Assembly (NCBI GenBank): GCA_016188605.1
Contig: JACPHP010000001.1
Coordinates: 1,327-65,326, forward strand
Length of the DNA stretch: 64,000 bases
Direction: 5' to 3'
DNA from: Candidatus Spechtbacteria bacterium
GTDB lineage: Bacteria; Patescibacteriota; Minisyncoccia; Spechtbacterales; JACPHP01
Part shown: positions 796 through 59,068 of the stretch, one piece after another
Layout: each line of letters opens with the position of its first letter
Numbering within the stretch: the first letter of the stretch is position 1
Position numbers and translations under genes: made by a program
The notes under the pieces: model-generated
What the model was told of the DNA's origin: nothing
Databases searched by the model: none
What the model saw: the letters and a program-made list of their open reading frames with translations, nothing else

Positions 796-950
796 ATCTC
801 AAATCTCAAATGTTAAATCGCAAAACTAAAACTCAAATCTCTCAGCCAAGGGCTGATCCGCCTCCGGCGGAAAAACTTTTAATCTGACAGAGAGGAGATT
901 GTAGATTTAAGATGCAGATTTAAGATTTGCCATTTGAGATTTGAGATAAA
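796..950. repeat. palindromic heptamer array (aaatctc / gagattt arms) enclosing a REP-like twin-hairpin element
   Basis: Left arm has tandem caaatct-type 7-mers and the right arm has the reverse-complement 7-mers. The same organisation recurs at 58914..59068. Confidence 0.7.
842..875 (+). mobile_element. REP-like twin-hairpin element copy R1 (tCAGCC-aag-GGCTGa-tCCGCC-tcc-GGCGGaaaaa)
   Basis: Two adjacent GC-rich mini-hairpins in AT-rich spacer. Family has about 10 copies in the window. Confidence 0.7.
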
Positions 951-1009
951 AACAATCAAATTTATAGTCTTATTAAAATCTAAGATCTCATACTTAGAAT
1001 TAATACTAT

Positions 1010-2062
1010 TTATTTCTCATTCTGTGCCGCGGATGAAATTACGTCAAGCATTTCATCTAAATCACCATCGAGAATTGCGGTGATGTTGTGCCAATTTTCG
1101 TTAATACGATGATCCGTAACGCGATCTTGAGGAATATTGTATGTGCGAATTTTTTCACTTCGCTCGCCGCTGCCTATTTGAGAACGGCGCGCCTCTCCGC
1201 GCGCTTTTTCTTCTTTTTCACGCTGTTCTTGTAATATGCGGCTACGCAAAATTGTTAGCGCGATCTCTTTGTTTTCCGCTTGCGAGCGTCCGGCTTGCGA
1301 AGCAACGACCGTACCGGTGGGAATGTGGGTTACCCTTACAGCCGAAGATGTTTTATTTACATATTGTCCGCCAGGCCCAGACGCGCGAAAAACGTCTATC
1401 TGTAATTCGTCTTGGCGGATTTGAATATCGATCGGTTTTGCTTTTGGCAAAATTGCCACGGATGCCGTGGATGTATGCACGCGACCCGCTTTTTCTGTTT
1501 CCGGAATACGCTGTACACGATGTACGCCGCTTTCATATTCTAGGCGCGAAAAAGCGCCCTTGCCATGTATTTCACAAACCGCTTCTTTAATGCCGCCAAT
1601 TTCCGTTCTGCTTGAATCTAGAATGGTAAATTTCCAATTTTTGCGTTCGGCATATCGTGTGTACATACGCAGAAGGTTTTGCGCGAACAAGGCCGCCTCA
1701 TCACCACCGACACCAGCTCGTATTTCCATAATCAAATCGTCATATTCTTTATCAGATGTTGTGGGATTAACGAATTCTGTTAGCTGTTTCTCAATGTCAG
1801 CCATTTTTTGTTTATCTTCCCGCGCTGTTTCTGTGGCGAGTTGCGCCATCTCCGGATCGGTTTCTTTCTGAGCCATTTCCTCGTGTTCTTTTATCATTTC
1901 CTCAAGCTCATTGATTTGTTCCTGGAAGGAGACGATCTGCTCTACAAAAGAGTACCTTTTGGACGCTTCTCGCAGTTCTTGGCTAGACGAAAAAGCTCTC
2001 GGGTTGCTTAGTTTACCCGCGAGCTCATCCCGTTCTTTTTTTAGTTCGGAAGTATCATGCAT
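1010..2062 (-). CDS. prfA: peptide chain release factor 1
   Basis: 350 aa. GGQ motif (SGPGGQYVNKT) and the RF1-type tripeptide region RVQRIPETEKAGRVHTS (PxT-type, not the SPF of RF2). Confidence 0.9.
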   Translation of the reverse strand: MHDTSELKKERDELAGKLSNPRAFSSSQELREASKRYSFVEQIVSFQEQINELEEMIKEHEEMAQKETDPEMAQLATETAREDKQKMADIEKQLTEFVNPTTSDKEYDDLIMEIRAGVGGDEAALFAQNLLRMYTRYAERKNWKFTILDSSRTEIGGIKEAVCEIHGKGAFSRLEYESGVHRVQRIPETEKAGRVHTSTASVAILPKAKPIDIQIRQDELQIDVFRASGPGGQYVNKTSSAVRVTHIPTGTVVASQAGRSQAENKEIALTILRSRILQEQREKEEKARGEARRSQIGSGERSEKIRTYNIPQDRVTDHRINENWHNITAILDGDLDEMLDVISSAAQNEK

Positions 2063-2097
2063 AGCTATGATTTGAGAAGCTGGACATGAATTATATC

Positions 2098-2177
2098 ATC
2101 AACGAATAACGAATCTGTTACGAATAAACGAATTGACCAGCATTCGTAATTTAGCGCGGGATTCGCTATTCGTTGAT
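2098..2177. mobile_element. MITE family A copy 1 (TIR ATCAACGAATAACGAAT ... ATTCGCTATTCGTTGAT)
   Basis: 17-bp terminal inverted repeats seen directly, with internal cgaata 7-mer sub-repeats. Fills the prfA-rpmE spacer. Confidence 0.75.
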
Positions 2178-2191
2178 GATGCCATTGAAAA

Positions 2192-3220: not shown

Positions 3221-3332
3221 TTCCATTGTTTCATTGCTCTATCGTTACATTGTTACATTGTTTCATTGTTGCATGGTTTCATGGTTACATAAACAATGAA
3301 ACAATGGAGCAATGAAGGGTCAATGGGAGCGG
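3221..3332. repeat. palindromic heptamer array (cattgtt / aacaatg arms)
   Basis: ccattgtttcattgctc...cattgttacattgtttcattgttgc ... acaatgaaacaatggagcaatgaag. Inverted arms seen directly. Confidence 0.65.
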
Positions 3333-6212: not shown

Positions 6213-6887
6213 TTAGCGACTACCGCAAGACGCGGAACCCCAGCGGCCATCCGAGTCGCCGACCCCGTACCAGAAGAGCCTCGGCCGATCGCCGCCGTCC
6301 AGATAGACATTCGGCACCCCGTCGGCGGACTCGTAGCGGGAGCCGGTAGCCCACACATAGTGCCGCGAGAGCACATCCGTGTGAGTGGTGAGCGCCATGA
6401 CCTCGGCGGCAGTGAGCGGAGACCGCTTCTGCTGCTTGAGGATTTTCTCGGCGTTCTCCGGCGACTTGCCGCGCGTGCTGTTGCCGTCCTCGACATCGTA
6501 GATGTAGTAGGGCTCGCTGGGAGCGTCCACCACATCGGAGATCGCGGTCGGGTTGAGATAGGTGTAGCCCACCTTCCCGCCGTTCTTGACCATCGCCATG
6601 AGGTCGTAGGGGCTCCGATACGAACGGGGGATGACCGGGAGGAACGGAATGTTGCCGTCTCCGATCGCCACCTCGCTCGCCTTCTTCACCACTGCGCCCT
6701 TCTGGTTCTGGAGGATCTCCACGATCTGCTCTGGGACGCCGCGATCCTTGAGAGTCGCGATCTGAGCATCGAAGAGCTTCTCGAGGTCGTTCCGCTTGGC
6801 CTGCGCCACCGCGTCATCGAACTTCTCCGGGTCGGCCTCTCGCAAGAGGGCGACCAACCTCCCGATCAACTGAAACTGATTTACCAT
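6213..6887 (-). CDS. hypothetical protein encoded on a roughly 62 % GC island (likely horizontally acquired); family not recognised
   Basis: 224 aa with strongly GC3-biased codons, unlike all neighbours. Strong SD GGAGGAA 6 nt upstream of ATG at 6887. The island starts 19 nt after tRNA-Thr. Confidence 0.7.
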   Translation of the reverse strand: MVNQFQLIGRLVALLREADPEKFDDAVAQAKRNDLEKLFDAQIATLKDRGVPEQIVEILQNQKGAVVKKASEVAIGDGNIPFLPVIPRSYRSPYDLMAMVKNGGKVGYTYLNPTAISDVVDAPSEPYYIYDVEDGNSTRGKSPENAEKILKQQKRSPLTAAEVMALTTHTDVLSRHYVWATGSRYESADGVPNVYLDGGDRPRLFWYGVGDSDGRWGSASCGSR

Positions 6888-6908
6888 CTGTCCTTCCTCC
6901 TTCTGGAC

Positions 6909-6928
6909 TTTTCCGCCAAAGGCGGATC
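6909..6928 (-). mobile_element. partial/degenerate REP-like element copy R2 (ttttCCGCCaaaGGCGGatc)
   Basis: CCGCC-aaa-GGCGG hairpin preceded by tttt, matching one half of the twin-hairpin element. Confidence 0.5.
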
Positions 6929-6938
6929 TGTCTCTGGC

Positions 6939-8015
6939 ATGACACTTTCTGCGTTATGTATAACAAAATTCTGCCTCCTGTCAAGTACCCCGGGTAATGT
7001 GCCGCACATTACCAGCAGTTACATCAAATGCAGAGAAATATGGTATAATAACCTCGTGAATAATTTATTCGTTGACAAATTACGCGATAATTTTTCAGCC
7101 ACTCCACGCAATCAATATATAGCGTCTGCTTTTTTGATTTTTGCGACGTTTGCAATGTGGGAAGGGGTGAATGTTTTGGTTTCTGGGTCTGAAATCGCAG
7201 ATATTCATCTGATAATTGGGCTTATTGGTTTTACCCTATGGTCCGCGCTATTTGCTCTAAGCTTTCTTTTGCTTGATCCGCCGTGGCTTGCATACATTGT
7301 ATATATTATTACAAGTATCGTGCTTCTCGCATTGTTCGGCTGGCAGCAATGGCCTATCGTTGGTGTTGCTTCGTTCTTAATTTTTACGGTGTCCGCGCGC
7401 CAAAGTGTTACAAATGAGCGTGAATTACTTGCATCGTTTAGATTGAGCCGCTTTGTTAAAAAGGGATTGTCGTCATTTTTTACCGGCGTTGCCATACTGC
7501 TCGCGTTCGTTTATTATTTTTCTCCGTACGGAGCAGCAAACTTGCGGCCGGAAATTCCGCGCGCGGTAGTTGATCTCTCATTTATTCCAATAGACGTTAT
7601 TGCCGCAACAACAATCTACGGCTACGAACCAGGAGCAACTGTCGGCCAGTTCCAATCGTTGATGATCCAAAATCTTTTGCCAATATTAACTCACAGTACC
7701 GGACCGGTTCAAATTACAGAAGATGTGAAAAAAAATTTCAGCGTGATTAAAGATGAAAAAACGCTCGGAATGCCCCTGCCCCAATTTATATACGAGCAGT
7801 CAAACGCCTATCTTGCAAAATTCGTTGAGCCGTATAAAAGCTATTTGCCAATATTTTTCGTGCTTACTTCATTCTTGACTTTTAAATTATTGAGTATACC
7901 ATTTGTATGGTTTACTCAGCTTGCCGCGTGGGGTTTAATGAAGCTATTTATTGCACTCGGTATAGCAGGGTTTAATAAGGAAATAATAGAAAAAGACAGG
8001 CTGGTGTTGAAGTAA
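6939..8015 (+). CDS. hypothetical polytopic membrane protein (start chosen at first ATG outside the GC island)
   Basis: Track ORF 6360..8015 runs antisense through the GC-rich gene for its first about 190 codons. The hydrophobic multi-TM sequence begins about 6939. Confidence 0.5.
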
Positions 8016-9650: not shown

Positions 9651-9893
9651 ATGTCATCTGTATACGTGTTAAAGAGTCTGCGGAATGGCAAGAGGTATAT
9701 TGGAAGTACCGAACTTAATCCTGAAGAAAGATTGAAGCGGCATAATTCCGGTACCAATCAATTTACAAAAAGAAATGGGCCATTTGTATTGGTCTATCGA
9801 GAACAGTGTACTGACAAAACAGCATCAAGAAAAAGAGAGAATTTTTTAAAATCAGGAGTTGGAAGAAAGTACCTAGATAGTATTCTTAGTTAG
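9651..9893 (+). CDS. GIY-YIG nuclease superfamily protein (YhbQ/UPF0213-like, 80 aa)
   Basis: VYVLKSLRNGKRYIGSTELNPEERLKRHNSG...PFVLVYREQ...RENFLKSGVGRK matches the GIY-YIG core. GGAGGG sits upstream of ATG 9651. The track ORF starts earlier at 9609 inside the upstream gene. Confidence 0.6.
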   Translation: MSSVYVLKSLRNGKRYIGSTELNPEERLKRHNSGTNQFTKRNGPFVLVYREQCTDKTASRKRENFLKSGVGRKYLDSILS

Positions 9894-9906
9894 TTAAGTG
9901 TTTTGT

Positions 9907-9979
9907 GCACCCATAGCTCAGCTGGTAGAGCAGCTCCCTTTTAAGGAGATGGTCGCAGGTCCGAATCCTGCTGGGTGCA
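9907..9979 (+). tRNA. tRNA-Lys (anticodon UUU); CCA not encoded
   Basis: Acceptor GCACCCA/TGGGTGC, D-arm GCTC-AGCTGGTA-GAGC, anticodon stem GCTCC/GGAGA with loop CTTTTAA (anticodon TTT), T-arm GCAGG-TCCGAAT-CCTGC, discriminator A. Confidence 0.85.
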
Positions 9980-10002
9980 CAAAACACTTAACTATGTAGA
10001 GC

Positions 10003-10037
10003 AGCTCCCTTTTTCCGCCAGAGGCGGATCAGCCTTT
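10003..10037 (-). mobile_element. REP-like element copy R3 inserted in the anticodon loop of a tRNA-Lys fragment
   Basis: ttttCCGCCagagGCGGatCAGCCtttGGCTGaaa. Confidence 0.7.
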
Positions 10038-10152
10038 GGCTGAAAGGAGATGGTCGCAGGTCCGAAGGATCAGCCTTTGGCTGAAAGGAGATGGTCGCAG
10101 GTCCGAATCCTGCTGGGTGCACAAAACACTTAACTATGTAGAGCAGCTCCCT

Positions 10153-10197
10153 TTTTCCGCCCCGAGGTGTCTGTCCGCCTCAGAAGGGGATCAGTCT
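10153..10197 (-). mobile_element. degenerate long-variant REP-like element copy R5 in the second tRNA-Lys fragment
   Basis: ttttccgccccgaggtgtctgtccgcctcagaaggggatcagtct. Compare the long variant at 21367..21418. Confidence 0.5.
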
Positions 10198-10811: not shown

Positions 10812-11783
10812 ATGAATACACCAATCACAAACACACCGAAAGATGTATTTTTGCATCTTTTGCATATCAGCATGCTCTACGTGAGCGTGGTAAGTTTTAT
10901 AACTTTATTCTTTCAGTATATTAATTATATGTTTCCTGATCAGTTGAATTTTTATCTGATGGGAATATTGGATTCTATACATCTTTCCAGCGCTTCACTG
11001 GCAATCTCTTTTCCCGTGTACTTACTTAGCACGTGGATGATAGAAAAAGATTTTATGTCCTTTCCAGAAAAGCGTGAATTTGCTATTCGCAAATGGTTAG
11101 TTAACCTAACACTCTTTATTGCCTCAATTACGATTATAGTTGACCTGATCACGCTCATCTATACATATTTTAACGGTGAACTGACGATGAGGTTTTTTCT
11201 GAAAGTAGCGCTCGTTCTAGCAATTGCCGCGGTTGTCTTTGGATATTATATTTGGGACATGCGAATAAAAGACGAGATAAAAACCGTTCGCATGCAGATA
11301 AAACTTGGCGCCGTGTCGCTTCTAGTAGTGCTGGCGACAATCGCGTATGGTTTTATTTTGGTGGGCAGCCCAGAGCAGCAGCGTGCCAGGCGCTTTGACG
11401 ATCAGCGCGTGCAAGATTTACAGGGTATTCAAAATGAGATAGTGAATTATTGGCAACAAAAAGAAGTCTTGCCGCAAAGCTTAGATGCGCTTACAAATAG
11501 CATTTCTGGTTATAGCGCGCCAAAAGATCCTCGGACTAACGAGTTGTACGAATACGCAGTCTCTGGCGCGCTTACGTTTCAACTCTGCTCTAACTTTGAA
11601 GCCTCTACTGCGGGGCAGTCGGATCAGCGCATATATAAGCATGGTCCATACGGTCAAAATTGGAATCACGCAGTCGGCCGCGTCTGTTTTCCAAAAGAGA
11701 TTGATCCGGAACTTTATAAAACTGCAAAGCGAGGAGAAATGTTGCCTATAGATTATGTTCGGCCACCGGCAGTTGCGCAGTAA
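10812..11783 (+). CDS. hypothetical membrane protein (N-terminal 4-5 TM, C-terminal soluble domain)
   Basis: 323 aa ORF. No confident family. Confidence 0.5.
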   Translation: MNTPITNTPKDVFLHLLHISMLYVSVVSFITLFFQYINYMFPDQLNFYLMGILDSIHLSSASLAISFPVYLLSTWMIEKDFMSFPEKREFAIRKWLVNLTLFIASITIIVDLITLIYTYFNGELTMRFFLKVALVLAIAAVVFGYYIWDMRIKDEIKTVRMQIKLGAVSLLVVLATIAYGFILVGSPEQQRARRFDDQRVQDLQGIQNEIVNYWQQKEVLPQSLDALTNSISGYSAPKDPRTNELYEYAVSGALTFQLCSNFEASTAGQSDQRIYKHGPYGQNWNHAVGRVCFPKEIDPELYKTAKRGEMLPIDYVRPPAVAQ

Positions 11784-11787
11784 CATT

Positions 11788-12129
11788 ATGAAATTCGTTA
11801 TTCCAAACACACGCCTAAGTATCGCGAACGCGTTGCGTATGTGTGGCTATCATTTTGAGCGAGAGCACGAAAAAAGCAACGAAGTGAGCGCCGCGCGTAA
11901 TATGGGCGCTGGAGATTTTCCGCGTTTTCATGTTTATGCCACCTTGCAGAAATCATCGGAACCCGACCCATATGGTCGCAAGCAAGATTTGAATATGAAT
12001 TTGCATTTAGACCAGAAAGGAGCAAGTTATAATGGTGCAAGTGCTCACAGCGGTGAATACGAAGGTCCGCTTGTAGAGCAGGAGGCAGCGAGGATTAAAA
12101 AAGTTTTGGCAGATAGCCAAGCGCAATAA
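11788..12129 (+). CDS. hypothetical protein (113 aa from MKFVIPNTR)
   Basis: ORF continuity. The earlier in-frame start 11755 overlaps the upstream gene. Confidence 0.4.
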   Translation: MKFVIPNTRLSIANALRMCGYHFEREHEKSNEVSAARNMGAGDFPRFHVYATLQKSSEPDPYGRKQDLNMNLHLDQKGASYNGASAHSGEYEGPLVEQEAARIKKVLADSQAQ

Positions 12130-19023: not shown

Positions 19024-20010
19024 ATGCCTATGGAAAAACCTTGGGTCGGGATTGTTACTATTAACTGGAACAACCCTCAAGAAACGCTCGAATGCCTCAA
19101 ATCTCTATCTGGCGTTTCCTATGACAGGAAACGCATTTTTGTTGTAGACAACGGCTCTTCTGACGATTCGGTCGAGGTTTTGTCAGCGCAACAGCAAGCC
19201 CTTAATTTTACGTTCGTTGAAAGTAAGGAGAACACTGGTTTTAGTGGCGGTTGCAATATTGGCATGCGCAAGGCGTTGGAAGACAACGACATCTCGTATA
19301 TACTTTTTTTAAATAATGATACGACAGTCGCGCCGGATTTTTTGGATAAAATGATTGAGGTTGCGGAGGGCGACAAAGCGGGCGGCATGTGGGCGCCCGT
19401 TATTTACTACTCTGCTCGTCCCGACGAAATTTGGTTTGCCGGAGGGAAGCTGCGCTGGATGCGTGTAAGCCAGATAGGCGAGCACGTGATTAGATTTGCC
19501 ACACGCAGCAGCGTGTTCGCAAAGCAATCATTTCGCCCTACGCGGGGCGAAATACCTTTTATTTATAACGCAAATAAATCAGACTATTTTGAAACAGAGT
19601 TTATAACTGGATGCGCGATGCTTGCGCGCAGGAAAGTTGCGCAGCGAGTGGGCGAGTGGGACGAGCGATTTTTTCTATATTTTGAGGATGTTGATTATAG
19701 CTTGCGAGCAAAGGATCTGGGATGGAAATTGCACATTATTCCCAGCGCCAAAATTTGGCACAAGGTATCCGCAACAGCACTAGGCAAAGTTGGCAGCCCA
19801 AAGATTTTGTATTATCACCATCGCAATGGCATGCTCATTACGAAATTACACGGACCATTCTGGGCAAATGTTTATAAACATTACTGGGCGGCGGCAAAAG
19901 TTAAATTGCAATTATTGAAAATTTTGCTCGGTATAAACAGAGAGCAGTCTAGGGCGATTATTCGCGGAATTACTGATTATTATAAAGGTAATTGGGGAAA
20001 AATTGATTAG
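19024..20010 (+). CDS. glycosyltransferase family 2
   Basis: VVDNGSSDDS and DxD-containing GT2 core. Confidence 0.8.
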   Translation: MPMEKPWVGIVTINWNNPQETLECLKSLSGVSYDRKRIFVVDNGSSDDSVEVLSAQQQALNFTFVESKENTGFSGGCNIGMRKALEDNDISYILFLNNDTTVAPDFLDKMIEVAEGDKAGGMWAPVIYYSARPDEIWFAGGKLRWMRVSQIGEHVIRFATRSSVFAKQSFRPTRGEIPFIYNANKSDYFETEFITGCAMLARRKVAQRVGEWDERFFLYFEDVDYSLRAKDLGWKLHIIPSAKIWHKVSATALGKVGSPKILYYHHRNGMLITKLHGPFWANVYKHYWAAAKVKLQLLKILLGINREQSRAIIRGITDYYKGNWGKID

Positions 20011-20037
20011 TCTTATTATGATAAATGAAAAAGTGTT

Positions 20038-20098
20038 GTCATCTCGAGCGAGCACGCGAGAGATCTCTCGTCCCGTCGTTGCAGGACTTCGAGATGAC
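20038..20098. mobile_element. MITE family C copy 1 (TIR GTCATCTCGA ... TCGAGATGAC; internal palindrome GAGAGATCTCTC plus gtcccg..ggac hairpin)
   Basis: Seen directly. Second copy at 49849..49906, with the internal modules in inverted order. Confidence 0.7.
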
Positions 20099-20107
20099 AA
20101 ACTAAAA

Positions 20108-21253: not shown

Positions 21254-21279
21254 AAAGTCTATTCATAAACTATAAGCAA

Positions 21280-21458
21280 AATTTCAAAATCCAAATGTCA
21301 AATTACAAATCAATTTCAAATACTAAATGTCAAATGCTAAAATTTTAGGTTTTGAATATTTGAGACTTTTCCGCCTGAGGCGCCTGTCCGCCTCTGGCGG
21401 GGATCAGCCTATGGCCGAGACATTGATTTGACATTTGTAATTTGGACTTTGTAATTTA
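21280..21458. repeat. palindromic heptamer array (caaatgt/acatttg units) enclosing a long-variant REP-like element
   Basis: aaatgtcaaattacaaatcaatttcaaatactaaatgtcaaatg ... cattgatttgacatttgtaatttggactttgtaattt. Confidence 0.65.
21367..21418 (-). mobile_element. REP-like element, long variant (R6) with two CCGCC hairpins plus CAGCC/GGCC hairpin
   Basis: ttttccgcctgaggcgcctgtccgcctctggcggggatcagcctatggccgaga. Its reverse complement matches the 45196..45246 copy. Confidence 0.65.
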
Positions 21459-21464
21459 CTAGCT

Positions 21465-24165: not shown

Positions 24166-24177
24166 TAAATGAATGTC

Positions 24178-24250
24178 ATCAACGAATAACGTACGAATAT
24201 ATGAATCGGCCGTAGTGGAGTATTCGTATATTCGTACGTTATTCGTTGAT
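24178..24250. mobile_element. MITE family A copy 2
   Basis: atcaacgaataacg ... cgttattcgttgat. Fills the spacer between the GT2 stop (24165) and the LCP start (24259). Confidence 0.75.
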
Positions 24251-27160: not shown

Positions 27161-27192
27161 TCAGCCAAAGGCTGATCCGCCTTCGGCGGAAA
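27161..27192 (+). mobile_element. REP-like element copy R7
   Basis: tCAGCCaaaGGCTGatCCGCCttcGGCGGaaattt. Confidence 0.7.
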
Positions 27193-27265: not shown

Positions 27266-27300
27266 TCAGCCATAGGCTGATCCGCCTCAGGCGGAGAAAA
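27266..27300 (+). mobile_element. REP-like element copy R8
   Basis: tCAGCCataGGCTGatCCGCCtcaGGCGGagaaaa. Confidence 0.7.
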
Positions 27301-29193: not shown

Positions 29194-29272
29194 CGAATCC
29201 ATTACGAATTTACGAATATCCTACTATCTATAGCTGATTCGTTTATTCGGATAGGATTCGTTATTCGTTGAT
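29182..29272. mobile_element. MITE family A copy 3
   Basis: atcaacgaataacgaat...attcgttattcgttgat. Overlaps the pyrG stop and abuts the rpmA stop. Confidence 0.8.
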
Positions 29273-29544: not shown

Positions 29545-29624
29545 AGTGTTAGATTAAATCAAATAATAAATTTTAGATTAGCCGAATCATTCAACATATA
29601 AATGACTATTTTGAAATTTTATTA

Positions 29625-32849: not shown

Positions 32850-32945
32850 ATCGGCGATATAGAATAGAGGGGAGTATAAGAAGAAGCTTCTTTGGCCGTT
32901 ATTTATATAGTCGTATAATGTACCTTATGCGACATACAATATAAA

Positions 32946-33018
32946 ATCAACGAATAACGAATCCCTACGAATAAACGAATTAAAAATAAGAAGTAGATAG
33001 TATTCGTTATTCGTTGAT
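32946..33018. mobile_element. MITE family A copy 4
   Basis: atcaacgaataacgaat...attcgttattcgttgat. Confidence 0.75.
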
Positions 33019-36252: not shown

Positions 36253-36339
36253 ATTAGCGAATAACGAATGGCATAAGAATATACGAATACTCCACTACAG
36301 CCAATTCGTTTATTCGTAAAAAATTCGTTATTCGTTGAT
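36253..36339. mobile_element. MITE family A copy 5
   Basis: attagcgaataacgaat ... attcgttattcgttgat. The right TIR supplies the last codons of murG (...L-I-N-E-stop). Confidence 0.8.
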
Positions 36340-37497: not shown

Positions 37498-37584
37498 AAT
37501 CAGCGAATAACGAATAGTGTACGAATATACGAATACTCTACCAAATCGATTCGTTTATTCGTGTTGGATTCGTTATTCGTTGAT
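37498..37584. mobile_element. MITE family A copy 6
   Basis: aatcagcgaataacgaat ... attcgttattcgttgat. Confidence 0.75.
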
Positions 37585-37588
37585 TATA

Positions 37589-38701: not shown

Positions 38702-38780
38702 TCAGCGAATAACGAATGGCGTACGAATATACGAATACTCCACTACCGCTAATTCGTTTATTCGTAAAAAATTCGTTGAT
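38700..38780. mobile_element. MITE family A copy 7 (right TIR shortened)
   Basis: aatcagcgaataacgaat ... aattcgttgat. Confidence 0.7.
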
Positions 38781-38781
38781 G

Positions 38782-40347: not shown

Positions 40348-40354
40348 AAATTTA

Positions 40355-40468
40355 ATCTAAAATCTCAAATGGCAAATCTTAAATCTACATCGCAAATCTT
40401 AAAGCTTCAGTCGTAATTTTTAGATTTAAGTTTTAGTTTTGCGATTTGCGATTGGAGTTTTGACATTT
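40355..40468. repeat. palindromic heptamer array (caaatct / agatttg arms)
   Basis: aaaatctcaaatggcaaatcttaaatctacatcgcaaatcttaaag ... tagatttaagttttagttttgcgatttgcgattggagttttgacattt. Confidence 0.7.
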
Positions 40469-40470
40469 AT

Positions 40471-42368: not shown

Positions 42369-42455
42369 ATCAACGAATAACGAATCCTTTACGAATAAAC
42401 GAATTGGCTGTAGCGGAGTATTCGTATATTCGTACGCTATTCGTTATTCGTTGAT
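42369..42455. mobile_element. MITE family A copy 8
   Basis: atcaacgaataacgaat ... attcgttattcgttgat. The right TIR supplies ...I-I-N-E-stop of the ATP-grasp gene. Confidence 0.8.
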
Positions 42456-43673
42456 GATATATTCTTGCACCCTATATAGCTCCTCATTCACCCCTACCAC
42501 TTTCATACGCGAAGTAACAATTCCTTCACCTAAGGGCAGCTGAATTTCCGAAACCAGCACTTCATTCTGTAGTTTATTGCGATACAGCACTTGCCGTACC
42601 TTACCACGCAAGACAAGCGGCGGTAAGTCCCCGTTCGACAAGCTCAGGGCAAGCTCCTTTTTCGGCTCGAATCCTGGCTCCAGCATGTCGTTAATAAACA
42701 ATAGAATTAGAGGGGTTTTATTTATGGCTCGATGCAGTTTTGCTTCAAATGAAATGCTAGCTGGCTGATGCGTGTTTACTTCAATAAAGTATACTTTACC
42801 AGTGCTTTTTTCTGCCACAGCGTCAATGCCAAAAAGGCCATTGTAGCCCTTAGCATGCATCGCGGTTCCTACGTTTCTCGCCATCACGCCGATAGCTTCT
42901 ATTTGACTTTGCGAAAGTTCTTCGGACACGATGCCGAAATCGTTTCCCACGGTTGATGACGGATTGTTTGTTGCTTCAGGTAGTCCGGTAAGCTGTTTGC
43001 TGATAGAGCCCGTATAGACCGTGCCATTTTTTGCTGCAAACGCATTAAGAGTGTAAGTATTTCCCGTGATGAATTGCGCGATCCTTACTTCCCTATTCGG
43101 GAATTTTTCCGCGTGCGGAGTAAGATCTTCGATTGACTGCAAAATAAACGTCCCTCCTCCGCTGTGGCCGATATTATACTGGGCAACTAACGGTAACGGC
43201 ATTTTTGCAATAACTTTGGTTGCTTGCGACAATGTTGTAATAATAGTTGGCGGAAACTCAATGCTATCTTTAAGATGTTGATATTGGGTTATTTTATCTT
43301 CAAAAAGAGTTGCTAAATCCGCGCGCGGCGCCATAAGTTGCCAGCTGTTCTTTTGGCATTCTTGCTCGATAGGCTCGGAGGTTTTTAGTACAAGAATGTT
43401 TGATTGCTGTCCGGCCGACAAATCATCAATATATTTTATAACGCAGGTTAACTTCGCCACGCCATAAGTGCCAGCGCGCAGATTATCTTCCCAATTTTTG
43501 TCAACACAATCGCGTTCCAGAATAAACATTTTTGTGCCCCTTGCCTCCAAGTCATCTGTAAAAGCGCTTTTATATGGACAAATAATAGCGTAGTTAGCCA
43601 AATCATCCTCAACGCCGGTTGCGCGTTCAGGGTCAAGGGCGAGATAGAAAATTTTGTTATTCCCTATTGACAT
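42444..43673 (-). CDS. ATP-grasp domain protein (peptide/amino-acid ligase-like)
   Basis: ATP-grasp C-terminal motifs GLFGIDAV and YFIEVNTHQPASISFEA. Start taken at Met29 (43673), because the first 28 track codons lie in a tataat-rich spacer. Confidence 0.65.
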   Translation of the reverse strand: MSIGNNKIFYLALDPERATGVEDDLANYAIICPYKSAFTDDLEARGTKMFILERDCVDKNWEDNLRAGTYGVAKLTCVIKYIDDLSAGQQSNILVLKTSEPIEQECQKNSWQLMAPRADLATLFEDKITQYQHLKDSIEFPPTIITTLSQATKVIAKMPLPLVAQYNIGHSGGGTFILQSIEDLTPHAEKFPNREVRIAQFITGNTYTLNAFAAKNGTVYTGSISKQLTGLPEATNNPSSTVGNDFGIVSEELSQSQIEAIGVMARNVGTAMHAKGYNGLFGIDAVAEKSTGKVYFIEVNTHQPASISFEAKLHRAINKTPLILLFINDMLEPGFEPKKELALSLSNGDLPPLVLRGKVRQVLYRNKLQNEVLVSEIQLPLGEGIVTSRMKVVGVNEELYRVQEYIINE

Positions 43674-43746: not shown

Positions 43747-43941
43747 GTGGTTGACATCGGTGAAGTAATCTATCTTGCTATTGCGGTATTTATTGGTTGT
43801 GCGTTCGGAAACTTTGTGGAAAGCTCTTCTAGAACGGGAAGCTCTTCTAGAAGTCGTGCGTTCGAGCGCAGTCTCTTTCAATTTGTAGCATTATTTTGTT
43901 TTGTCTTGTCCATCGTACTTGTCTACCTCATCCGTGTATAA
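43747..43941 (+). CDS. small two-TM protein (GTG start, strong SD AAGGAGG) containing a tandem 17-bp repeat
   Basis: aaaggaggaataagaGTG. Encodes VVDIGEVIYLAIAVFIGCAFGNFVESSSRTGSSSRSRAFERSLFQFVALFCFVLSIVLVYLIRV. Tandem agctcttctagaa x2 inside. Confidence 0.4.
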   Translation: MVDIGEVIYLAIAVFIGCAFGNFVESSSRTGSSSRSRAFERSLFQFVALFCFVLSIVLVYLIRV

Positions 43942-44793
43942 TAAATCCGTCATTAGACACACCGACTGCCCAGCTTCACCAAGAGGCTGGGCTTTTTCTT
44001 TCCATTTTAGAAATCCCGCGAATGCCAAAACGCTTTGCCAACCTGGCTTAAACTCACAGCCCTCAAAGTACTTCGCGGCATTTTCCAGTTCTTGATTGAA
44101 AATAACATAGCCATTGCCACCGGTTGCGCGGACAATATTCGCAACTGTTTTTTTGCGAGGTGCTACGCGGTCTACGATTGCCGTGGCCAAACTTTCTTTT
44201 TCTTCTATAAAATCTTTGCTAAATTCTTGCGCTATCGTGTGCACCTTGCTTGTTTGTACTATATGAAGTTCCGGAACCTCACATCCAAGGACTTTATATC
44301 CATTGTATATTCCCTGCAAGGTTGCGCCTGAGCTAGTAGGTATAAAAATGCGTTTCGTATCGGGCAACTGATCGCGTAGCTCAAACGAGATTGTTTTATA
44401 TCCCTCAATCCCCTCCTCATGCTTTGACGCGAGCAGATTAGGAATATTGTTCTTTTGGCTGAATTGTACGGATTCCTTGCGCGGAAGCGCGCTCTGGTAT
44501 ATCTGGATGTTGTCAAAAGATTGAAGGCGTGCTAGTTTTTCTTTGGCAAGCTTGGTGCTAATAAAAACATGCAGGCGGATATTTGCTAGCTTGCAATATG
44601 CCGCCGCGGAAATAGCGGAATTTCCGGACGAGGCAATAGCGAGCTCTTTTACGCCATTCATACGACAAAGCGAAATCCAATACGCGAAAGATCGATCTTT
44701 GTGCGTACCAGTGGGGTTGCGAAATTCAAGTTTTCCCCACACCGAAATATCCCCAATTGACTGCGTTTTTTGCAGACTATATACTGGGGTCAT
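43891..44793 (-). CDS. threonine synthase-like PLP-dependent enzyme (fold type II)
   Basis: GEGMTPVYSL...GKLEFRNPTGTHKDRS...ASSGNSAISAAAYC aligns with the ThrC N-terminus and PLP-Lys motif. Start taken at the internal Met (44793) so the gene does not overlap the divergent Zn-ribbon gene. Confidence 0.65.
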   Translation of the reverse strand: MTPVYSLQKTQSIGDISVWGKLEFRNPTGTHKDRSFAYWISLCRMNGVKELAIASSGNSAISAAAYCKLANIRLHVFISTKLAKEKLARLQSFDNIQIYQSALPRKESVQFSQKNNIPNLLASKHEEGIEGYKTISFELRDQLPDTKRIFIPTSSGATLQGIYNGYKVLGCEVPELHIVQTSKVHTIAQEFSKDFIEEKESLATAIVDRVAPRKKTVANIVRATGGNGYVIFNQELENAAKYFEGCEFKPGWQSVLAFAGFLKWKEKAQPLGEAGQSVCLMTDLLYTDEVDKYDGQDKTK

Positions 44794-44868
44794 TCCCTCT
44801 CCCAAGGAGGATTTACAACCATCCGGGATGGGCGGAGAAAACAAATCATTAAAGTCCCAAAATATCAT

Positions 44869-45031
44869 GAAAGTAAAATGCCAAGAATGTAAAAATGAAA
44901 AAGCGTTAGACGACTTTGACGCGCAAGCAGGCAACTGGTTTGAGTGCGACTATTGTGGCACTACCTACGAGATTGTCGATATTGACGAAGACGGTGAGCC
45001 GCAGCTGCAAATGATTGAGGAGGAAAAATAA
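44869..45031 (+). CDS. LysW-like zinc-ribbon protein (54 aa, CxxC-x17-CxxC followed by acidic tail)
   Basis: MKVKCQECKNEKALDDFDAQAGNWFECDYCGTTYEIVDIDEDGEPQLQMIEEEK. Has the G-x-x-Y-E-[IV]-V motif after the second CxxC, like amino-group carrier protein LysW, but the C-terminus is EEEK rather than EDWGE. Confidence 0.5.
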
Positions 45032-45099: not shown

Positions 45100-45295
45100 T
45101 CAAAATTTTCAATGGTTATGTTTTCAGCCATAGCAAGAAATACAAAAAAATGTATTTCTACGTTTAACAAAAATTACAACAAAATGTAATTTTACGCTAA
45201 GGCTGATCCCCGCCAGAGGCGGGCAGGCGTCTCAGGCGGAGAAAATTTAGTAATTGTAAATTTATTGAAAATTGTTAAATTGAAAATTGATCATT
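45100..45295. repeat. spacer filled with heptamer repeats (ttgaaaattg units) and a long-variant REP-like element
   Basis: ttcaaaattttcaatgg...gtaattgtaaatttattgaaaattgttaaattgaaaattgatcat. The same ttgaaaattg motif follows R8 at 27400..27455. Confidence 0.6.
45196..45246 (+). mobile_element. REP-like element long variant copy R9
   Basis: gctaaggctgatccccgccagaggcgggcaggcgtctcaggcggagaaaattt, the reverse complement of the 21367 copy. Confidence 0.65.
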
Positions 45296-46630
45296 TTTCT
45301 GTTTTATAGTTCTTATTGTCTCCTCTATCATCCCCCTAAACCCTTTTTGGCTCATGAAAACAACACAGCCAAAGATATCCCGTTTCCTCCAACCAACTAC
45401 AATTTTTTTAATTTGCGAAATTACCTCCTCGTCTTCCGTTATAAATTGTACGCGCTTGTAATCTTTTTGAATTTTCCGCGCAAGCTTTTTATTAAACTCT
45501 TGTGATTCAGCCGAAGTGCCGCTCAAGCGAGGCAGTAAGACATAATCCGCCTTCGCAAAACATTTGTGGTATTCTTTTTGCTTCAGCGCCAAATCGCTTC
45601 TATTTCCCGGTTCGTATATTGCGATTATAGATTTGCAAGGAAATTGCGCGCGGATTGCTTCAAGCGCCCCCTCAACTTTTTCCGGAGAATGGGCGTTGTC
45701 GTCTATCACTACTATGTTTTTGTCCTGGTAGCGCACTTCCTGGCGGCGTTTAATGCCCTTAAAAGTTCGCAGCGCTCTCTTTATTTGTTTATCTTCTATT
45801 CCTATCTGTTTGGCTAGCGCCACGACCGAACCAATATTCTCTTTCCATGCCGCGCCCAAAAAGGGAGGGGTAAAGCCTTCGGCGCTATTTTCATCGTACC
45901 AGCAAATTTGTGCTTTTGCACCATTTAGAACCTCTTGGGCATTCTCTCCCCTTCTATTGGCAATAATCACGCCATTTTTAGGCATTTTTAGGGCAAGCTT
46001 ATGGAATGTATTTATATAAGAACTCTTGGTCGGAAACATATCCATGTGGTCCCAGGTGGCACCCGTGAGAATAAGATATTTGGGGTGATAAGCCAAAAAT
46101 CGCGATGTTTTCTTCCAATTTGCGATGGGATATTCATCACCCTCAAGAACCGACCACTTGCTATCCGTGCTGCGGATGCCGTCGGTGAAGTTTTTGGCAA
46201 TGCCGCCTATCATAAAACTGGGATTGAATTTGGCGACTTCGAGCAGCCACGCAACGAGTGACGTTACAGAAGTTTTGCCGCACGATCCTGCCACAACAAT
46301 AGAATTTTCTTTTTCTATTAGTTCTGGTAAAACTTCGCCATATGTCTTGTAGGGAATCTTATTTTTTATAGCATAGGCAAGTTCGGGATTCTTTTTGCTA
46401 ATGAACGCCATAACTAGCACAAGATCGGGCCTTTGGCTAAGATGTTTTTCTTTGTAGCCAGGCATAATTGCAATGCCATTTTTCTTCAAATAGGTACTCA
46501 TGGGCGGGAAAAACGCGCGATCGGAACCAGTCACTTTCCAGCCAAGTTTTTTATACAAAACAGCCAGAGGTGCCATTGTCACCCCAGAAATGCCTATAAA
46601 ATGAATGTGTTTTTGAGTTTCTTTGGTCAT
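45275..46630 (-). CDS. Mur ligase of the MurC/Mpl subfamily (UDP-MurNAc--L-Ala ligase or UDP-MurNAc:tripeptide ligase)
   Basis: IHFIGISGVTMAPLAV...VTGSDRAFFPPMSTYLKKNGIAIMPGY...VAGSCGKTS...LEGDEY...TWDHMDMF. The GSD-x-x-x-PPMST and EGDEY...DH motifs resemble Mpl more than canonical MurC. Confidence 0.75.
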   Translation of the reverse strand: MTKETQKHIHFIGISGVTMAPLAVLYKKLGWKVTGSDRAFFPPMSTYLKKNGIAIMPGYKEKHLSQRPDLVLVMAFISKKNPELAYAIKNKIPYKTYGEVLPELIEKENSIVVAGSCGKTSVTSLVAWLLEVAKFNPSFMIGGIAKNFTDGIRSTDSKWSVLEGDEYPIANWKKTSRFLAYHPKYLILTGATWDHMDMFPTKSSYINTFHKLALKMPKNGVIIANRRGENAQEVLNGAKAQICWYDENSAEGFTPPFLGAAWKENIGSVVALAKQIGIEDKQIKRALRTFKGIKRRQEVRYQDKNIVVIDDNAHSPEKVEGALEAIRAQFPCKSIIAIYEPGNRSDLALKQKEYHKCFAKADYVLLPRLSGTSAESQEFNKKLARKIQKDYKRVQFITEDEEVISQIKKIVVGWRKRDIFGCVVFMSQKGFRGMIEETIRTIKQKNDQFSI

Positions 46631-56626: not shown

Positions 56627-56641
56627 ATAATGATCAAGTGA

Positions 56642-57718
56642 CTAAAGTTGTAACACTGTTTGATGAATAGCCTCCTGTACTTTTTTCATATCTTGTTCTG
56701 AAGGCACTGCCATGCGCACCGCGTTTGCTAGATACGGTAGATTGGCTGGATGGTGTGATAGGTCATTTATCAATATTCCGTGATCGCGCATAGCTTCTAA
56801 GAAATTGGCTGAATTTTCGGTTTTGAAAAGGAAAAAGTTGGCCTTCGAAGGATAGACGCTAATCCCTTCTTTGCGCAGAAATTTTTCCATCGCCGCCTTC
56901 CTTTCGGCAAACTTTTTCCATTGTTCTTCAAAATAATGGAGGTTTTTAAGCGCAGTTGTTGCCGCGTAAGTGCTGAAATGGCTTAATTCCCAAGGGCCGC
57001 GCAGTTTTATTATTTCCCCAACAATAGATTCGTCAGCCAACATATATCCGATTCTTAGTCCCGCCATGCCAAAAAATTTGGAAAAAGTGCGTAAAACTAT
57101 AAGATTTTTGTGTTTCAAGATGTCTTGTACGTGGCTATGAGGGTAAAATCCAAAATATGCCTCGTCAAGGATGACAGGTATGCCTTGGTCGTCGCATGTA
57201 GCAATAAGCTCATTTAGCTGGCTCTCGTCCATTGCCGCTCCAAGAGGATTGTTAGGGTTGCACAGCAAAAGCGCTTTTGCACCTGGAAGGGCTTGTTTTG
57301 TTTCTTCAAAAGGAAATTCAAAGGATGTTTCGTTGTCGCGGTAAGGAATTTCTACAAGCTGGATTGGAGAAAATTGCGCTCGGTAGTTATAAAAAGCAAA
57401 GTTTGGCGATGGCATGATAACCTTGTCACCCTCGCGAAATAAAAGTTTAAAAAGTAGGTCAATTGCCCTGTCGGACCCGCCGGTAAGAAATATATTTTTA
57501 GTAGAAACGCCCGTGTAATTGGCTAGCAAGTCTAGTAGTTCCTCGTATTCCGGGTAACATCCGACAGTAAAAACGCTGAAATCCTTCAGCTTTGCCAAAA
57601 AATCGTCGTTTATAAGCCCGTAGCTCTCATTCAAATCTAGTCGGATAAATTGCTCTCTTTTAGAGGGCATTTTGTAGCGCTTTTGTGGCAACGAGTATTT
57701 CTCTGTAGAGAAAGTCAT
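56642..57718 (-). CDS. class I/II PLP aminotransferase, histidinol-phosphate aminotransferase (HisC/CobD)-like
   Basis: LNESY...GSDRAIDLL...NPNNPLG...RTFSKFFGMAGLRIGY (PLP-Lys). Confidence 0.75.
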   Translation of the reverse strand: MTFSTEKYSLPQKRYKMPSKREQFIRLDLNESYGLINDDFLAKLKDFSVFTVGCYPEYEELLDLLANYTGVSTKNIFLTGGSDRAIDLLFKLLFREGDKVIMPSPNFAFYNYRAQFSPIQLVEIPYRDNETSFEFPFEETKQALPGAKALLLCNPNNPLGAAMDESQLNELIATCDDQGIPVILDEAYFGFYPHSHVQDILKHKNLIVLRTFSKFFGMAGLRIGYMLADESIVGEIIKLRGPWELSHFSTYAATTALKNLHYFEEQWKKFAERKAAMEKFLRKEGISVYPSKANFFLFKTENSANFLEAMRDHGILINDLSHHPANLPYLANAVRMAVPSEQDMKKVQEAIHQTVLQL

Positions 57719-57777
57719 ATAGCTTATATTATAATATCACAAAATACCTTTTAAGTAAATAGATAGGGTTTGCGGCT

Positions 57778-58908
57778 CTATAACCCTCGTTTTATACGGC
57801 GCAAGCTTTCCAGTGCCCAGTTTGGCCAATAACGCCAGGAAATCGGTAAATCTTGCGCGTGGAGATAATCTGTTTGGTAGCCTCCGAATCCTTTTTTGAA
57901 CAACGTTAAGCCAGCCCATGGGTGCTTAGGATTTTCGCTGGTTGTGATGCCCCAAAAGTTATATAGCTTCTTGTTTCTTCTCTTTGCTTCTTTAATTGCC
58001 GCCCACTGCACTGCGTAGGCAGTCGGGATATTTGAATACCTAAGCGATGACGCGCCGTGGTGGTAGAAAGCGCTGTTTCCGTAAAAAATAATCACCGCGC
58101 TTGCTTGAGGTTCACCCTGAGCATTGCCGAAGGGCTCGCCCTTATACCAAGCGGAGATCACCTCCGCTTGTCCTTCCGTAGTCCTTCCGTAGCATTGTAG
58201 CGTAGGAGGGCGAAGGAGGACACTTTCATTTTTCGAGAACGCATCAACCTCGCATTGAATATATTCTCGTGAAAATGGAATAAAGTCGTGCTTAGCAACT
58301 GTTTCTTTGTGTAATTTATAAAAATGGTCAATATCTTCCTTGCTGGCGCCGATTGTAATCTCTACGCCTTCTCTTTCCGCGCGGCGGATGAGGTTTCGCG
58401 TGGTTTTGCGCATGCCCTTTAGCAATTCTTCCTCGCTAGGCGATAAATCAAGTGTCCAAGTAGTTTCCGCGTGCATGTGAATTGGCGCGGGGCGAAAACC
58501 CAAATCAGCAAAAAGCTGGCGATTTTCTTCAGTAGCTATCATTGGCGGGCTGACGCGAATAAAATACGCTTTTTCTTGTTGTGCAATCTTTTTTAACTCC
58601 GATGTAAGGGTTTTTAAGATTTCAAATTTTGAATTTTCATTTTGAGATTTGAGATTTGAGATTTGAGATTGAAATATCGGCCCGTGTGGTATAAAAAGAA
58701 ACCTTCCGCGTCTCGCCTCTACCAAAATTACAAGTATCACTGATACGAGTTCTCCATTTTCCTCAACACCAAAACGCCACATCTTATCCCCCATTCGCAC
58801 GTTAAACTCGCCCCACTGCCATGAATGCAGGAAAGTATGGTCGGGCTGGGAAGTGACGAAACTATCCCATTTTTCCTTGTCTGTTATTTGGATGATTTGT
58901 GGAGACAT
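57778..58908 (-). CDS. FemAB/FemX-family aminoacyl-tRNA-dependent peptidyltransferase-like protein
   Basis: HSWQWGEF N-terminal motif and tandem GNAT-like halves, about 376 aa. Confidence 0.65.
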   Translation of the reverse strand: MSPQIIQITDKEKWDSFVTSQPDHTFLHSWQWGEFNVRMGDKMWRFGVEENGELVSVILVILVEARRGRFLFIPHGPIFQSQISNLKSQNENSKFEILKTLTSELKKIAQQEKAYFIRVSPPMIATEENRQLFADLGFRPAPIHMHAETTWTLDLSPSEEELLKGMRKTTRNLIRRAEREGVEITIGASKEDIDHFYKLHKETVAKHDFIPFSREYIQCEVDAFSKNESVLLRPPTLQCYGRTTEGQAEVISAWYKGEPFGNAQGEPQASAVIIFYGNSAFYHHGASSLRYSNIPTAYAVQWAAIKEAKRRNKKLYNFWGITTSENPKHPWAGLTLFKKGFGGYQTDYLHAQDLPISWRYWPNWALESLRRIKRGL

Positions 58909-58913
58909 AATGT

Positions 58914-59068
58914 TATCTCAAAACGCAAATCTCAAATGTCAAAACTGAAACTTAAATCTCAAAACTACTACGGAGATACTTTTAATTTTTCCGCCAGAGG
59001 CGGATCAGCCTCAGGCTGAAGATTTAAGATTTTGATTTGAGTTTTACGATTTGAAATTTGAGATAAAA
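58914..59068. repeat. palindromic heptamer array (caaatct / agatttg arms) enclosing REP-like element R10
   Basis: Same organisation as 796..950. Confidence 0.7.
58987..59020 (-). mobile_element. REP-like element copy R10
   Basis: ttttCCGCCagagGCGGatCAGCCtcaGGCTGaa. Confidence 0.7.

Follow-up and report, generated by a model that had tools for sequence, protein, structure and literature searches.

A 30-nucleotide twin-hairpin repeat and its association with tRNA genes and small GIY-YIG nuclease genes in Candidatus Spechtbacteria and other bacteria

Twin-hairpin copies in the 64-kb window

The window analysed here is a 64,000-nucleotide (nt) stretch of a Candidatus Spechtbacteria genome (contig JACPHP010000001.1 of assembly GCA_016188605.1), whose intergenic spacers carry a family of short GC-rich repeats previously noted, in a preliminary description made from the sequence alone, as twin-hairpin elements. 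We refer to this repeat as E, a 30-nt module of the form T-CAGCC-n3-GGCTG-A|T-CCGCC-n3-GGCGG-A that consists of two abutting 15-nt palindromic units whose sequences differ at one base pair. Exact matches to CAGCCNNNGGCTG occur six times in the window against 0.02 expected from shuffled sequence, and CCGCCNNNGGCGG is matched nine times with at most one mismatch against an expected 1.3. The inventory comprises five perfect copies and four or five that are degenerate, truncated or nested; every copy is intergenic, and both orientations relative to the flanking genes are found. Several copies lie at a tRNA-Lys locus that also holds the window's sole small GIY-YIG nuclease gene. The copies and the features of this locus are given below, with bit scores from the covariance model R1, z values from folding of single-stranded DNA (ssDNA), and open reading frames (ORFs) or genes on either side.

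842..871, plus strand: perfect E, CAGCC hairpin first; loops AAG/TCC; 50.1 bits; z -4.55; centre of a heptamer-repeat palindrome between ORF 27-416 (+) and a release-factor gene, 1010-2062 (-)
6912..6942, minus strand: partly decayed E; TCCGCC-aaa-GGCGGA hairpin intact, second unit degenerate (TCTGTC-tct-GGCATGA); 28.7 bits; directly upstream of the DUF5701 gene 6213-6887 (-)
9651..9893, plus strand: small GIY-YIG nuclease gene, 80 amino acids, Slx1/YhbQ (UPF0213) type
9907..9980, plus strand: intact tRNA-Lys(UUU), same strand as the GIY-YIG gene and 13 nt 3' of its stop codon
9996..10123, plus strand: damaged second tRNA-Lys copy, from the 3' strand of the D-stem to the 3' end
10014..10043, minus strand: perfect E, CCGCC hairpin first on the plus strand; loops AGA/TTT; 57.8 bits; in the anticodon loop of the damaged tRNA-Lys copy
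10069..10084, minus strand: single CAGCC hairpin unit; 27.1 bits
10138..10197: stretch with a third tRNA-Lys fragment, gtagagcagctccctttt, followed from 10156 by the next copy
10156 to 10197, minus strand: decayed "long variant" E, TCCGCC..TCCGCC..GGGGATCAG; seen by eye, below the reach of R1
21370..21418, minus strand: long variant E; 22.6 bits; z -3.1; CAGCC unit with one mismatch (GGCCGA); centre of a heptamer palindrome between ORFs 20003-21253 and 21465-23027 (+)
27161..27190, plus strand: perfect E; loops AAA/TTC; 54.6 bits; between rplI (26681-27127) and pyrG (27460-29193)
27266..27295, plus strand: perfect E; loops ATA/TCA; 55.7 bits; same rplI-pyrG spacer, 105 nt downstream of the 27161 copy
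45201..45240, plus strand: long variant E, reverse complement of 21370-21418; 20.1 bits; CAGCC hairpin without its left arm; between ORFs 43891-44934 and 45275-46630 (-)
58990..59019, minus strand: perfect E; loops AGA/TCA on the plus strand; 55.2 bits; z -5.0; heptamer-repeat palindrome between ORFs 57778-58908 and 59083-60318 (-)

All of the copies listed in the preliminary description exist, with some coordinates shifted by 3-10 nt, and its list is complete: R1, which was built from 50 copies of E in other genomes and applied to the window with its filters disabled, gives the five perfect copies 46-58 bits, recovers 6909-6945, 10058-10087, 21368-21404 and 45206-45244 at 20-29 bits, and finds nothing else below an expectation value of about 0.6. 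The long variants (earlier placed at 21367-21418 and 45196-45246) are indeed mutual reverse complements, and represent a normal E whose CCGCC hairpin has a 17-nt sequence nested within its loop, the stem being extended at 21370..21418. As ssDNA, the four perfect copies outside the tRNA-Lys locus adopt a pair of abutting 6-bp hairpins with a folding energy of approximately -11.6 kcal/mol (z -4.5 to -5.0). The copy at 10014 gives -12.7 kcal/mol with z -3.6, a difference that arises because the flanking anticodon stem pairs too, and no significant fold was obtained for the 10138..10197 stretch. Searches of Rfam matched tRNAs alone, with no match for E either in the window at gathering score or in seven loci at expectation values up to 1. 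The earlier suggestion of a structured small RNA thus has no counterpart in Rfam, and the copies lie in both orientations relative to transcription.

At the tRNA-Lys locus, the damaged tRNA copy is split in its anticodon loop (ccctttt^aaggag), after tRNA position 36, by E at 10014-10043, and is interrupted again at 10067-10107 by a 41-nt tandem duplication. This duplication, downstream of tRNA-Lys, is perfect (10026-10066 = 10067-10107), as is a 77-nt direct repeat whose copies at 9943-10019 and 10085-10161 lie 142 nt apart (family D10); both are very recent local duplications around E. The partial copy that had been reported at 10059-10077 is real as a half unit (10069-10084) but belongs to the tandem duplication (10026-10107, family D11) and is not an independent insertion. 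The adjoining nuclease matches Pfam PF01541 at 5.6e-14 and has every residue that is invariant in its family alignment. We also observed that the flanks of the intact tRNA-Lys at 9886-9906 and 9981-9992 are complementary (ttaagtgttttgtgcaccca / tgggtgcacaaaacacttaa), lengthening the acceptor stem by about 12 bp, and that the 3' flank recurs with the tRNA fragment at 10123-10134.

Three of the window's copies sit in paralogous heptamer-repeat palindromes of about 110 nt (790-950, 58910-59070 and 21275-21470), and palindromes of the same family without E are found at 29618-29740, 40349-40470 and 62094-62214. The heptamer modules are CAAATCT-like on the left and AGATTTG-like on the right, in inverted arrays round a short centre, and also occur at 35148-35173 and 58604-58670. 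Short tandem-repeat arrays resembling these heptamers flank E in unrelated genomes as well (for example loci L034, L084, L090 and L109). The decayed copy at 6912 is crossed by a 551-amino-acid ORF (6360-8015, +) without a Pfam match that overlaps the DUF5701 gene 6213-6887 (-); the upstream part of this ORF is probably non-coding, and the 2-kb stretch around it is the GC maximum of the window (0.49).

Constraint, spread and insertion of the module

In a profile of 124 copies, E reads Y-Y-T-CAGCC-nRA-GGCTG-AT-CCGCC-TYn-GGCGG-A-R-A, with only about four freely varying positions, and the flanks beyond it bear no relation to each other between copies. The base at position -1 is T in 121 of the 124, while on the 3' side +1 is A in 122, +2 is A or G in 110 and +3 is A in 104. 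The preliminary description had the repeats always flanked by T4/A4, which is approximately right, the actual rule being Y-Y-T before and A-R-A after. More generally, the unit can be written T-C-N-GCC-n3-GGC-N'-G-A and is present twice, mostly as CAGCC then CCGCC. The loops, which had been described as varying in a compensatory manner, simply vary, with the preferences nRA and TYn; mutual complementarity of the two loops was not significant (175 of 2000 permutations reached the observed value).

Across the wider family, genuine compensatory change does occur in the stems, where it affects position 2 and the T:A pair that closes each unit. We examined this in 80 loci picked by their GIY-YIG protein, without reference to hairpins. 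Among 71 units of the form C.GCC...GGC.G, the free stem position 2 holds a Watson-Crick pair in 69 (C:G 30, A:T 27, G:C 8 and T:A 4), and the remaining two are G/T wobble combinations, one T with G and one G with T. At the closing pair, which the search did not require, T:A occurs 46 times and C:G 20 times, and pair counts on a further alignment (A4) agree with the covariation at both positions. One locus (L054) carries units with two compensatory changes, TGTGCC/GGCACA and GAGCC/GGCTC. When we scanned for any two perfect 5-bp hairpins at the spacing of E, C-N-GCC stems were the only ones to exceed the chance background. Twin scores are bimodal, with 24 perfect twins against 5 that have one to five defects; therefore the stems are maintained, or damaged copies are quickly lost, while the loops drift. 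The stems of E are under selection, as had been proposed from the window alone.

An exact search for the 22 fixed bases of E through one genome per species (596 Gb) identified at least 120 stretches of species-representative genomes that contain the pattern, compared with approximately 0.07 expected by chance. The hosts span at least ten phyla, with near-identical sequence throughout, and include Patescibacteria of many classes, Ignavibacteria/Bacteroidota, Omnitrophota, Gamma- and Deltaproteobacteria, Binatia, Thermodesulfobacteriota, Bdellovibrionota, Verrucomicrobiota, Planctomycetia and Elusimicrobia, among others. In several hosts the flanks of E are GC-rich, and these copies are therefore not mis-binned Patescibacteria DNA. 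No cyanobacteria appear among the first 80 listed titles of the at least 120 stretches. E is also present in 10 viral contigs, while BLAST searches of PLSDB plasmids and GenBank phages gave chance-level matches only (expectation values of at least 1). In Ignavibacteria and some viral contigs, ACTTTC-type repeats surround the module in the arrangement ctttctactttct[E]atactttccact (L025, L044, L075, L131, L135, L138 and L139), which suggests a larger composite repeat common to hosts and phages.

The boundaries of the insertion could be read from pairs of paralogous tRNA copies, in which an intact tRNA aligned with its damaged neighbour supplies the empty site. The difference between the two is exactly 30 nt, T[CAGCC..GGCGG]A, and no target bases are duplicated. 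The following sites illustrate this:

Ser D-loop: GGCTT^AACTGG becomes GGCTT-T[CAGCC..GGCGG]A-AACTGG
Ser anticodon loop: GGTCTC^GAAAACC, with the identical 30 nt
T-loop: GGTTC^GAATCC, with the identical 30 nt
Lys anticodon loop, in the window: CCCTTTT^AAGGAG, occupied at 10014-10043

E also occupies the Lys anticodon-loop site in L050, a contig from Giovannonibacteria, and in L220, a contig from a metagenome, in the opposite orientation. In tRNA numbering, the insertion points across loci fall at 5, 8, 12-14, 17, 20-21, 35-36, 55 and 71-72, a variety that argues for many independent events rather than one inherited insertion. The majority of sites are loose Y-Y^R-A steps, and many lie in loop-coding parts of redundant or damaged tRNA copies. 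Direct 8-mers common to both flanks are enriched (20% against 3% in controls) because E tends to sit in short tandem-repeat arrays. The idea that E generally caps an inverted repeat of the host was considered and rejected, as permuted controls gave equal values both for in-register complementarity between the flanks and for the folding energy of the flanks once joined. Another GC-rich palindrome, CCTGCCTGCCGG(C/T)AGGCAGG, fills the loops of tRNA fragments as E does in six loci (L042, L065, L087, L102, L215 and L219), near GIY-YIG genes or a twin hairpin.

Linkage to GIY-YIG genes and tRNA genes

To survey the neighbourhood of E, all 1539 ORFs within 1 kb of the module were clustered across 131 loci, namely the window and 130 others. 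The only ORF family found in more than four of these loci is the GIY-YIG nuclease, which is present in 14 at a median distance of 34 nt. The reverse view was taken from a protein-anchored sample of 80 metagenome loci (296 kb, 84 GIY-YIG genes) chosen by the consensus GIY-YIG protein alone. Here 11 of the 84 genes have an exact twin within 50 nt, and over the same distance 30 have one or more exact hairpin units; with any C-N-GCC stems allowed (score of at least 20/24), 22 (26%) have a twin within 120 nt, 17 of them upstream. Viewed from the hairpins, 26 of the 28 twins in these loci fall close to a GIY-YIG gene, in regions that make up 13% of the bases.

The tRNA genes form the third part of this tight physical linkage. 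An intact tRNA lies within 150 nt of 56 of 71 evaluable GIY-YIG genes (79%), always on the same strand, and belongs to Ser, Arg, Gln, Asn, Cys or other types. In 42 of these 56, the other flank of the nuclease gene shares with that tRNA an exact word of at least 11 nt, which we take as a partial copy of the adjoining tRNA. The genes thereby display the feature of a homing cassette, a nuclease gene beside a target gene that is duplicated or interrupted. E itself sits inside the partial tRNA copy, usually 10-50 nt upstream of the GIY-YIG start codon, where its place can be taken by CGGCC/CAGCC, CCGCC/CCGCC or CAGCC/CAGCC twins, by single CCGCC hairpins, or by CCTGCCTGCCGGCAGGCAGG. Tandemly duplicated GIY-YIG cassettes occur in L063, L054 and L142. 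Proteins with the same type of neighbouring hairpin are 50.0% identical to each other compared with 46.2% otherwise, a value that 1 of 1000 permutations reached.

An alignment of the nuclease family shows no variation in columns Y5, Y16, R27, H31 and E63. The family profile matches two UPF0213 structures best, 1zg2 (2e-14) and 1ywl (2e-13), followed by chains of the SLX1 structure-specific endonuclease, and the family is therefore placed in the bare "prokaryotic Slx1-like" group (PMC1564403). It is a minimal GIY-YIG domain with the catalytic Tyr, Arg, His and Glu, nearest to bacterial UPF0213 and eukaryotic SLX1, and is large, a short query retrieving 2588 clusters (50% identity) at an expectation value of 1e-3 or better.

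Many database homologues of the nuclease (P0121 and others) have 20-45 extra N-terminal residues. Stop-to-stop frames cross the upstream E or partial tRNA (for example L063|995-1384, L111 and L131|11534-11881), and peptides such as QPEADPPLAE and FRPRRISLGL read through the twin hairpin; gene callers may therefore be extending nuclease ORFs through E, and the extra N-termini are probably an annotation artefact. In three other loci (L203, L205 and L208), the same small GIY-YIG ORF interrupts a 16S rRNA gene in its 5' part, following AGAGTTTGATCCTGGCTCAG and some 70 nt further along. These ORFs are bracketed by an inverted repeat, gccacaccaat / attggtgtggc, about 130 nt to either side.

Origin of the element and comparison with known systems

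We favour an explanation to which we would give about an even chance, namely that E is a miniature insertion module tied to tRNA-invading cassettes with an Slx1/YhbQ-like GIY-YIG gene. The selfish cassette would consist of a GIY-YIG gene of about 80 codons inside a tRNA duplication, between the intact tRNA and its partial copy. The structure-specific nuclease would make a break in tRNA-gene DNA, at hairpin-extruding sites or in E itself, and repair synthesis would then carry E, or the whole cassette, into the break. Once lodged in the partial tRNA, E would interrupt a direct repeat that could otherwise delete the cassette. Solo copies in A/T-rich spacers, such as those at seven of the eight window sites, would be products of the same activity in trans, and the family would have spread through many phyla by horizontal transfer. 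That the nuclease mobilises E, and by which route, we infer from this arrangement. A stronger form of the proposal is that E and the Slx1-like GIY-YIG gene constitute a previously unrecognised class of mobile DNA, in which a bare structure-specific GIY-YIG nuclease would enter tRNA (and rRNA) genes in different bacterial phyla and disperse E into loop-like or Y-Y^R-A sites without target duplication; taken as a whole, we regard this as a possibility somewhat short of probable.

Several observations weigh against such a role for the nuclease. Approximately 90% of genomic copies of E are solo, with no GIY-YIG gene within 1 kb, and at the seven solo sites of the window neither a decayed nuclease gene nor a fragment of a tRNA T-arm was found nearby. 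Conversely, 74% of the GIY-YIG genes are without a canonical twin nearby; many have GC-rich hairpins of another type, or no hairpin. Nuclease clade and hairpin type correspond only weakly, and host phylogeny confounds this signal. An indirect linkage would also result if tRNA-like loops were the preferred sites of E and its copies lasted only where the tRNA copy is dispensable, provided that such tRNA copies arise mostly beside GIY-YIG cassettes. The movement of E in the Spechtbacteria window is read from sequence comparison: beyond an identical Candidatus Spechtbacteria protein, the hydrolase adjoining the 10-kb cluster has its next homologue in the protein database at only 77% identity, which leaves no near relative in which orthologous sites could be read as filled or empty. 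No GIY-YIG DNA transposase is known. Finally, an earlier interpretation of the bacterial Slx1-like GIY-YIG proteins is that they are repair enzymes passed on by vertical inheritance (PMC1564403).

The preliminary description likened E to REPs and bacterial interspersed mosaic elements (BIMEs), which are mobilised by REP-associated tyrosine transposases (RAYTs). In part this stands: like REPs, BIMEs and the paired REP elements known as REPINs, E is short, GC-rich, palindromic and intergenic, occurs in many copies in both orientations that are sometimes clustered, and behaves as an insertion; it also agrees with the definition of a REP as a 20-40-nt imperfect palindrome in many intergenic copies, and for both systems mobilisation in trans by a single-domain nuclease is supposed. 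In other features E departs from them. REPs carry at one end a conserved GTAG or CGTC tetranucleotide (PMC3733652), which is absent from the 124-copy profile of E, whose ends are YYT-CAGCC and GGCGG-ARA. The sequence of E is common to at least ten phyla, whereas REPs are specific to a species or genus; its tandem 15-nt palindromes form two 6-bp hairpins, whereas a REPIN is an inverted pair forming one long hairpin; and its recurring neighbour is a GIY-YIG nuclease, not a single-tyrosine (Y1) transposase. No IS200- or RAYT-like Y1 ORF was found when all ORFs of the window and the 130 loci were searched by phmmer with an IS200 TnpA query; a gene of this kind acting in trans could lie elsewhere. 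E is not a miniature inverted-repeat transposable element because it lacks a target duplication. With palindromes derived from IS200/IS605 it shares hairpins and the absence of duplication, while its target is only loosely Y-Y^R-A and not a fixed tetra- or pentanucleotide.

Four other accounts of E must be weighed against the nuclease-linked module. We consider it unlikely, though worth serious attention, that E is a miniature non-autonomous element served by a trans-acting enzyme unrelated to GIY-YIG (for example Y1/HUH, as in REP-RAYT or IS200/IS605-derived systems) and neighbours GIY-YIG genes simply because dispensable tRNA copies accumulate the two of them. Two similar yet distinct hairpins, reminiscent of the left and right ends of IS200/IS605, insertion without target duplication, the solo state of the majority of copies, and sites in loop-coding segments able to form ssDNA hairpins would all suit such an element; yet the missing Y1 ORF (weak evidence), the missing GTAG/CGTC tag, the recurrence of one sequence across phyla unlike REPs, and the many different insertion positions in adjoining tRNA copies speak against it, and 26 of 28 twins within 120 nt of a GIY-YIG gene is very tight for a purely indirect link. 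Less likely again is a functional structural module that is no parasite and spreads by recombination with the cassette, serving in transcript protection or processing (for instance where a tRNA precursor releases the 5' end of the GIY-YIG mRNA, or at operon 3' ends) or blocking recombination between tRNA repeats. The kept stems and drifting loops, the large excess of perfect over slightly damaged copies, the usual position 10-50 nt upstream of the GIY-YIG start inside a partial tRNA, and the stable hairpins in window spacers that all look transcribed are what such a module would show. However, the window copies take both orientations relative to transcription, Rfam gives no match, and the RNA past the hairpins begins A-R-A with no U-tract, while a host function would leave unexplained both an identical sequence in at least ten phyla and clean insertions at many positions of tRNA copies.

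The two remaining accounts treat E as a signal in double-stranded DNA or as no element at all. Its very regular palindromic layout, with fixed spacing and exclusively intergenic copies, might suggest that four TCNGCC hexamers in alternating orientation bind a regulator or nucleoid protein; we judge this improbable, as operators do not stay unchanged across phyla, E lies inside damaged tRNA copies and viral contigs, no regulator gene recurs beside it, and the compensatory changes keep each unit self-complementary, which indicates a hairpin or co-evolving half-sites. Least credible of all is that E is an intrinsic terminator or an artefact of assembly or sequencing. GC-rich hairpins between genes with runs of T and A nearby do recall terminators, but the T-run precedes the hairpins and, E being quasi-palindromic, A-R-A follows them on either strand, so that this reading fails; the occurrence of E in assemblies from many unrelated studies, its covariation and its consistent gene context are likewise at odds with an artefact.

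The nuclease-linked module may thus be regarded as a short palindromic mobile repeat with a partner nuclease, perhaps a very small kind of mobile DNA that has yet to be described. Its closest analogies would appear to be the double-hairpin elements (DHEs) of chytrids, the small dispersed repeats (SDRs) of Nostoc, and free-standing GIY-YIG homing genes such as phage T4 SegB. DHEs, reportedly described by Paquin, Laforest and Lang in 2000 from the mitochondrial DNA of Allomyces and other chytrids, are said to be very short, GC-rich and built of two adjacent hairpins, and to be dispersed over spacers and the variable regions of structural RNA genes; they were reportedly inferred to be mobile, were noted beside a mobile endonuclease ORF, and are said to be lineage-restricted. 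They are mitochondrial and eukaryotic whereas E is bacterial, and the likeness is one of architecture. The Nostoc repeats SDR4-6, reportedly described by Elhai et al. in 2008 (Genome Res 18:1484), are said to be 21-27 nt long and to fold into hairpins with compensatory changes; they reportedly lie in heptamer arrays, are sometimes nested, and were inferred to be mobile with no known enzyme. SDRs are also said to be confined to a cyanobacterial subgroup, with no nuclease partner proposed. E, at 30 nt, would resemble SDR4-6 in its hairpin fold, heptamer arrays and nesting.

For SegB the likeness lies in the nuclease: a GIY-YIG gene among tRNA genes, with local duplications of tRNA segments (PMC2330249, PMC13096335). 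SegB is a member of the I-TevI/UvrC lineage equipped with DNA-binding modules, whereas the proteins here are bare Slx1-like catalytic domains, and no hairpin module is known for Seg elements, unlike the cassettes with E. Closer in host range are the rRNA genes of the candidate phyla radiation (CPR), where GIY-YIG ORFs have been reported in non-intron insertions with no mention of tRNAs or a conserved hairpin (PMC11270868). These come from the same host group and are likewise small GIY-YIG ORFs at stem-loops of structural RNA genes, outside introns; the three loci described above with an ORF in the 5' part of the 16S gene match this pattern. A recent survey of tRNA introns in Patescibacteria mentions neither hairpins, repeats nor pseudogenes (PMC13011429). 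In the literature we searched, we found no earlier description of E or of its association with genes of the UPF0213/YhbQ (COG2827) family and tRNAs, although one may exist outside that literature.

If E and the nuclease do constitute a new class of mobile DNA, E would be the smallest known mobile unit in bacteria, and UPF0213/YhbQ, a large uncharacterised family, would gain the function of a selfish element. Should the link to the nuclease alone hold, E would rank among the smallest and most widely transferred mobile units, near-invariant from Patescibacteria to Deltaproteobacteria. It would also offer an explanation for two common features of reduced genomes, fragments of tRNA genes and tandemly duplicated tRNAs. 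For the bacterial Slx1-like proteins of the UPF0213/YhbQ family, which have solved structures and no established function, E would provide a defined 30-nt substrate. E could in addition mark the exchange of DNA among groundwater and sediment lineages and their phages.

Two further repeats were identified in the window. A second intergenic family of approximately 80-90 nt is built from AACGAAT/ATTCGTT heptamers (ATCAACGAATAACGAAT...ATTCGTTATTCGTTGAT; families D3-D5 and D9) and is found at 2098-2179, 24171-24247, 29182-29274, 32931-33018, 36253-36341, 37499-37586, 38701-38789 and 42369-42457, mainly between the genes of a minus-strand operon at 33-43 kb. At 3221-3292, about nine tandem copies of the 8-nt unit TTNCATTG are present (family D8).

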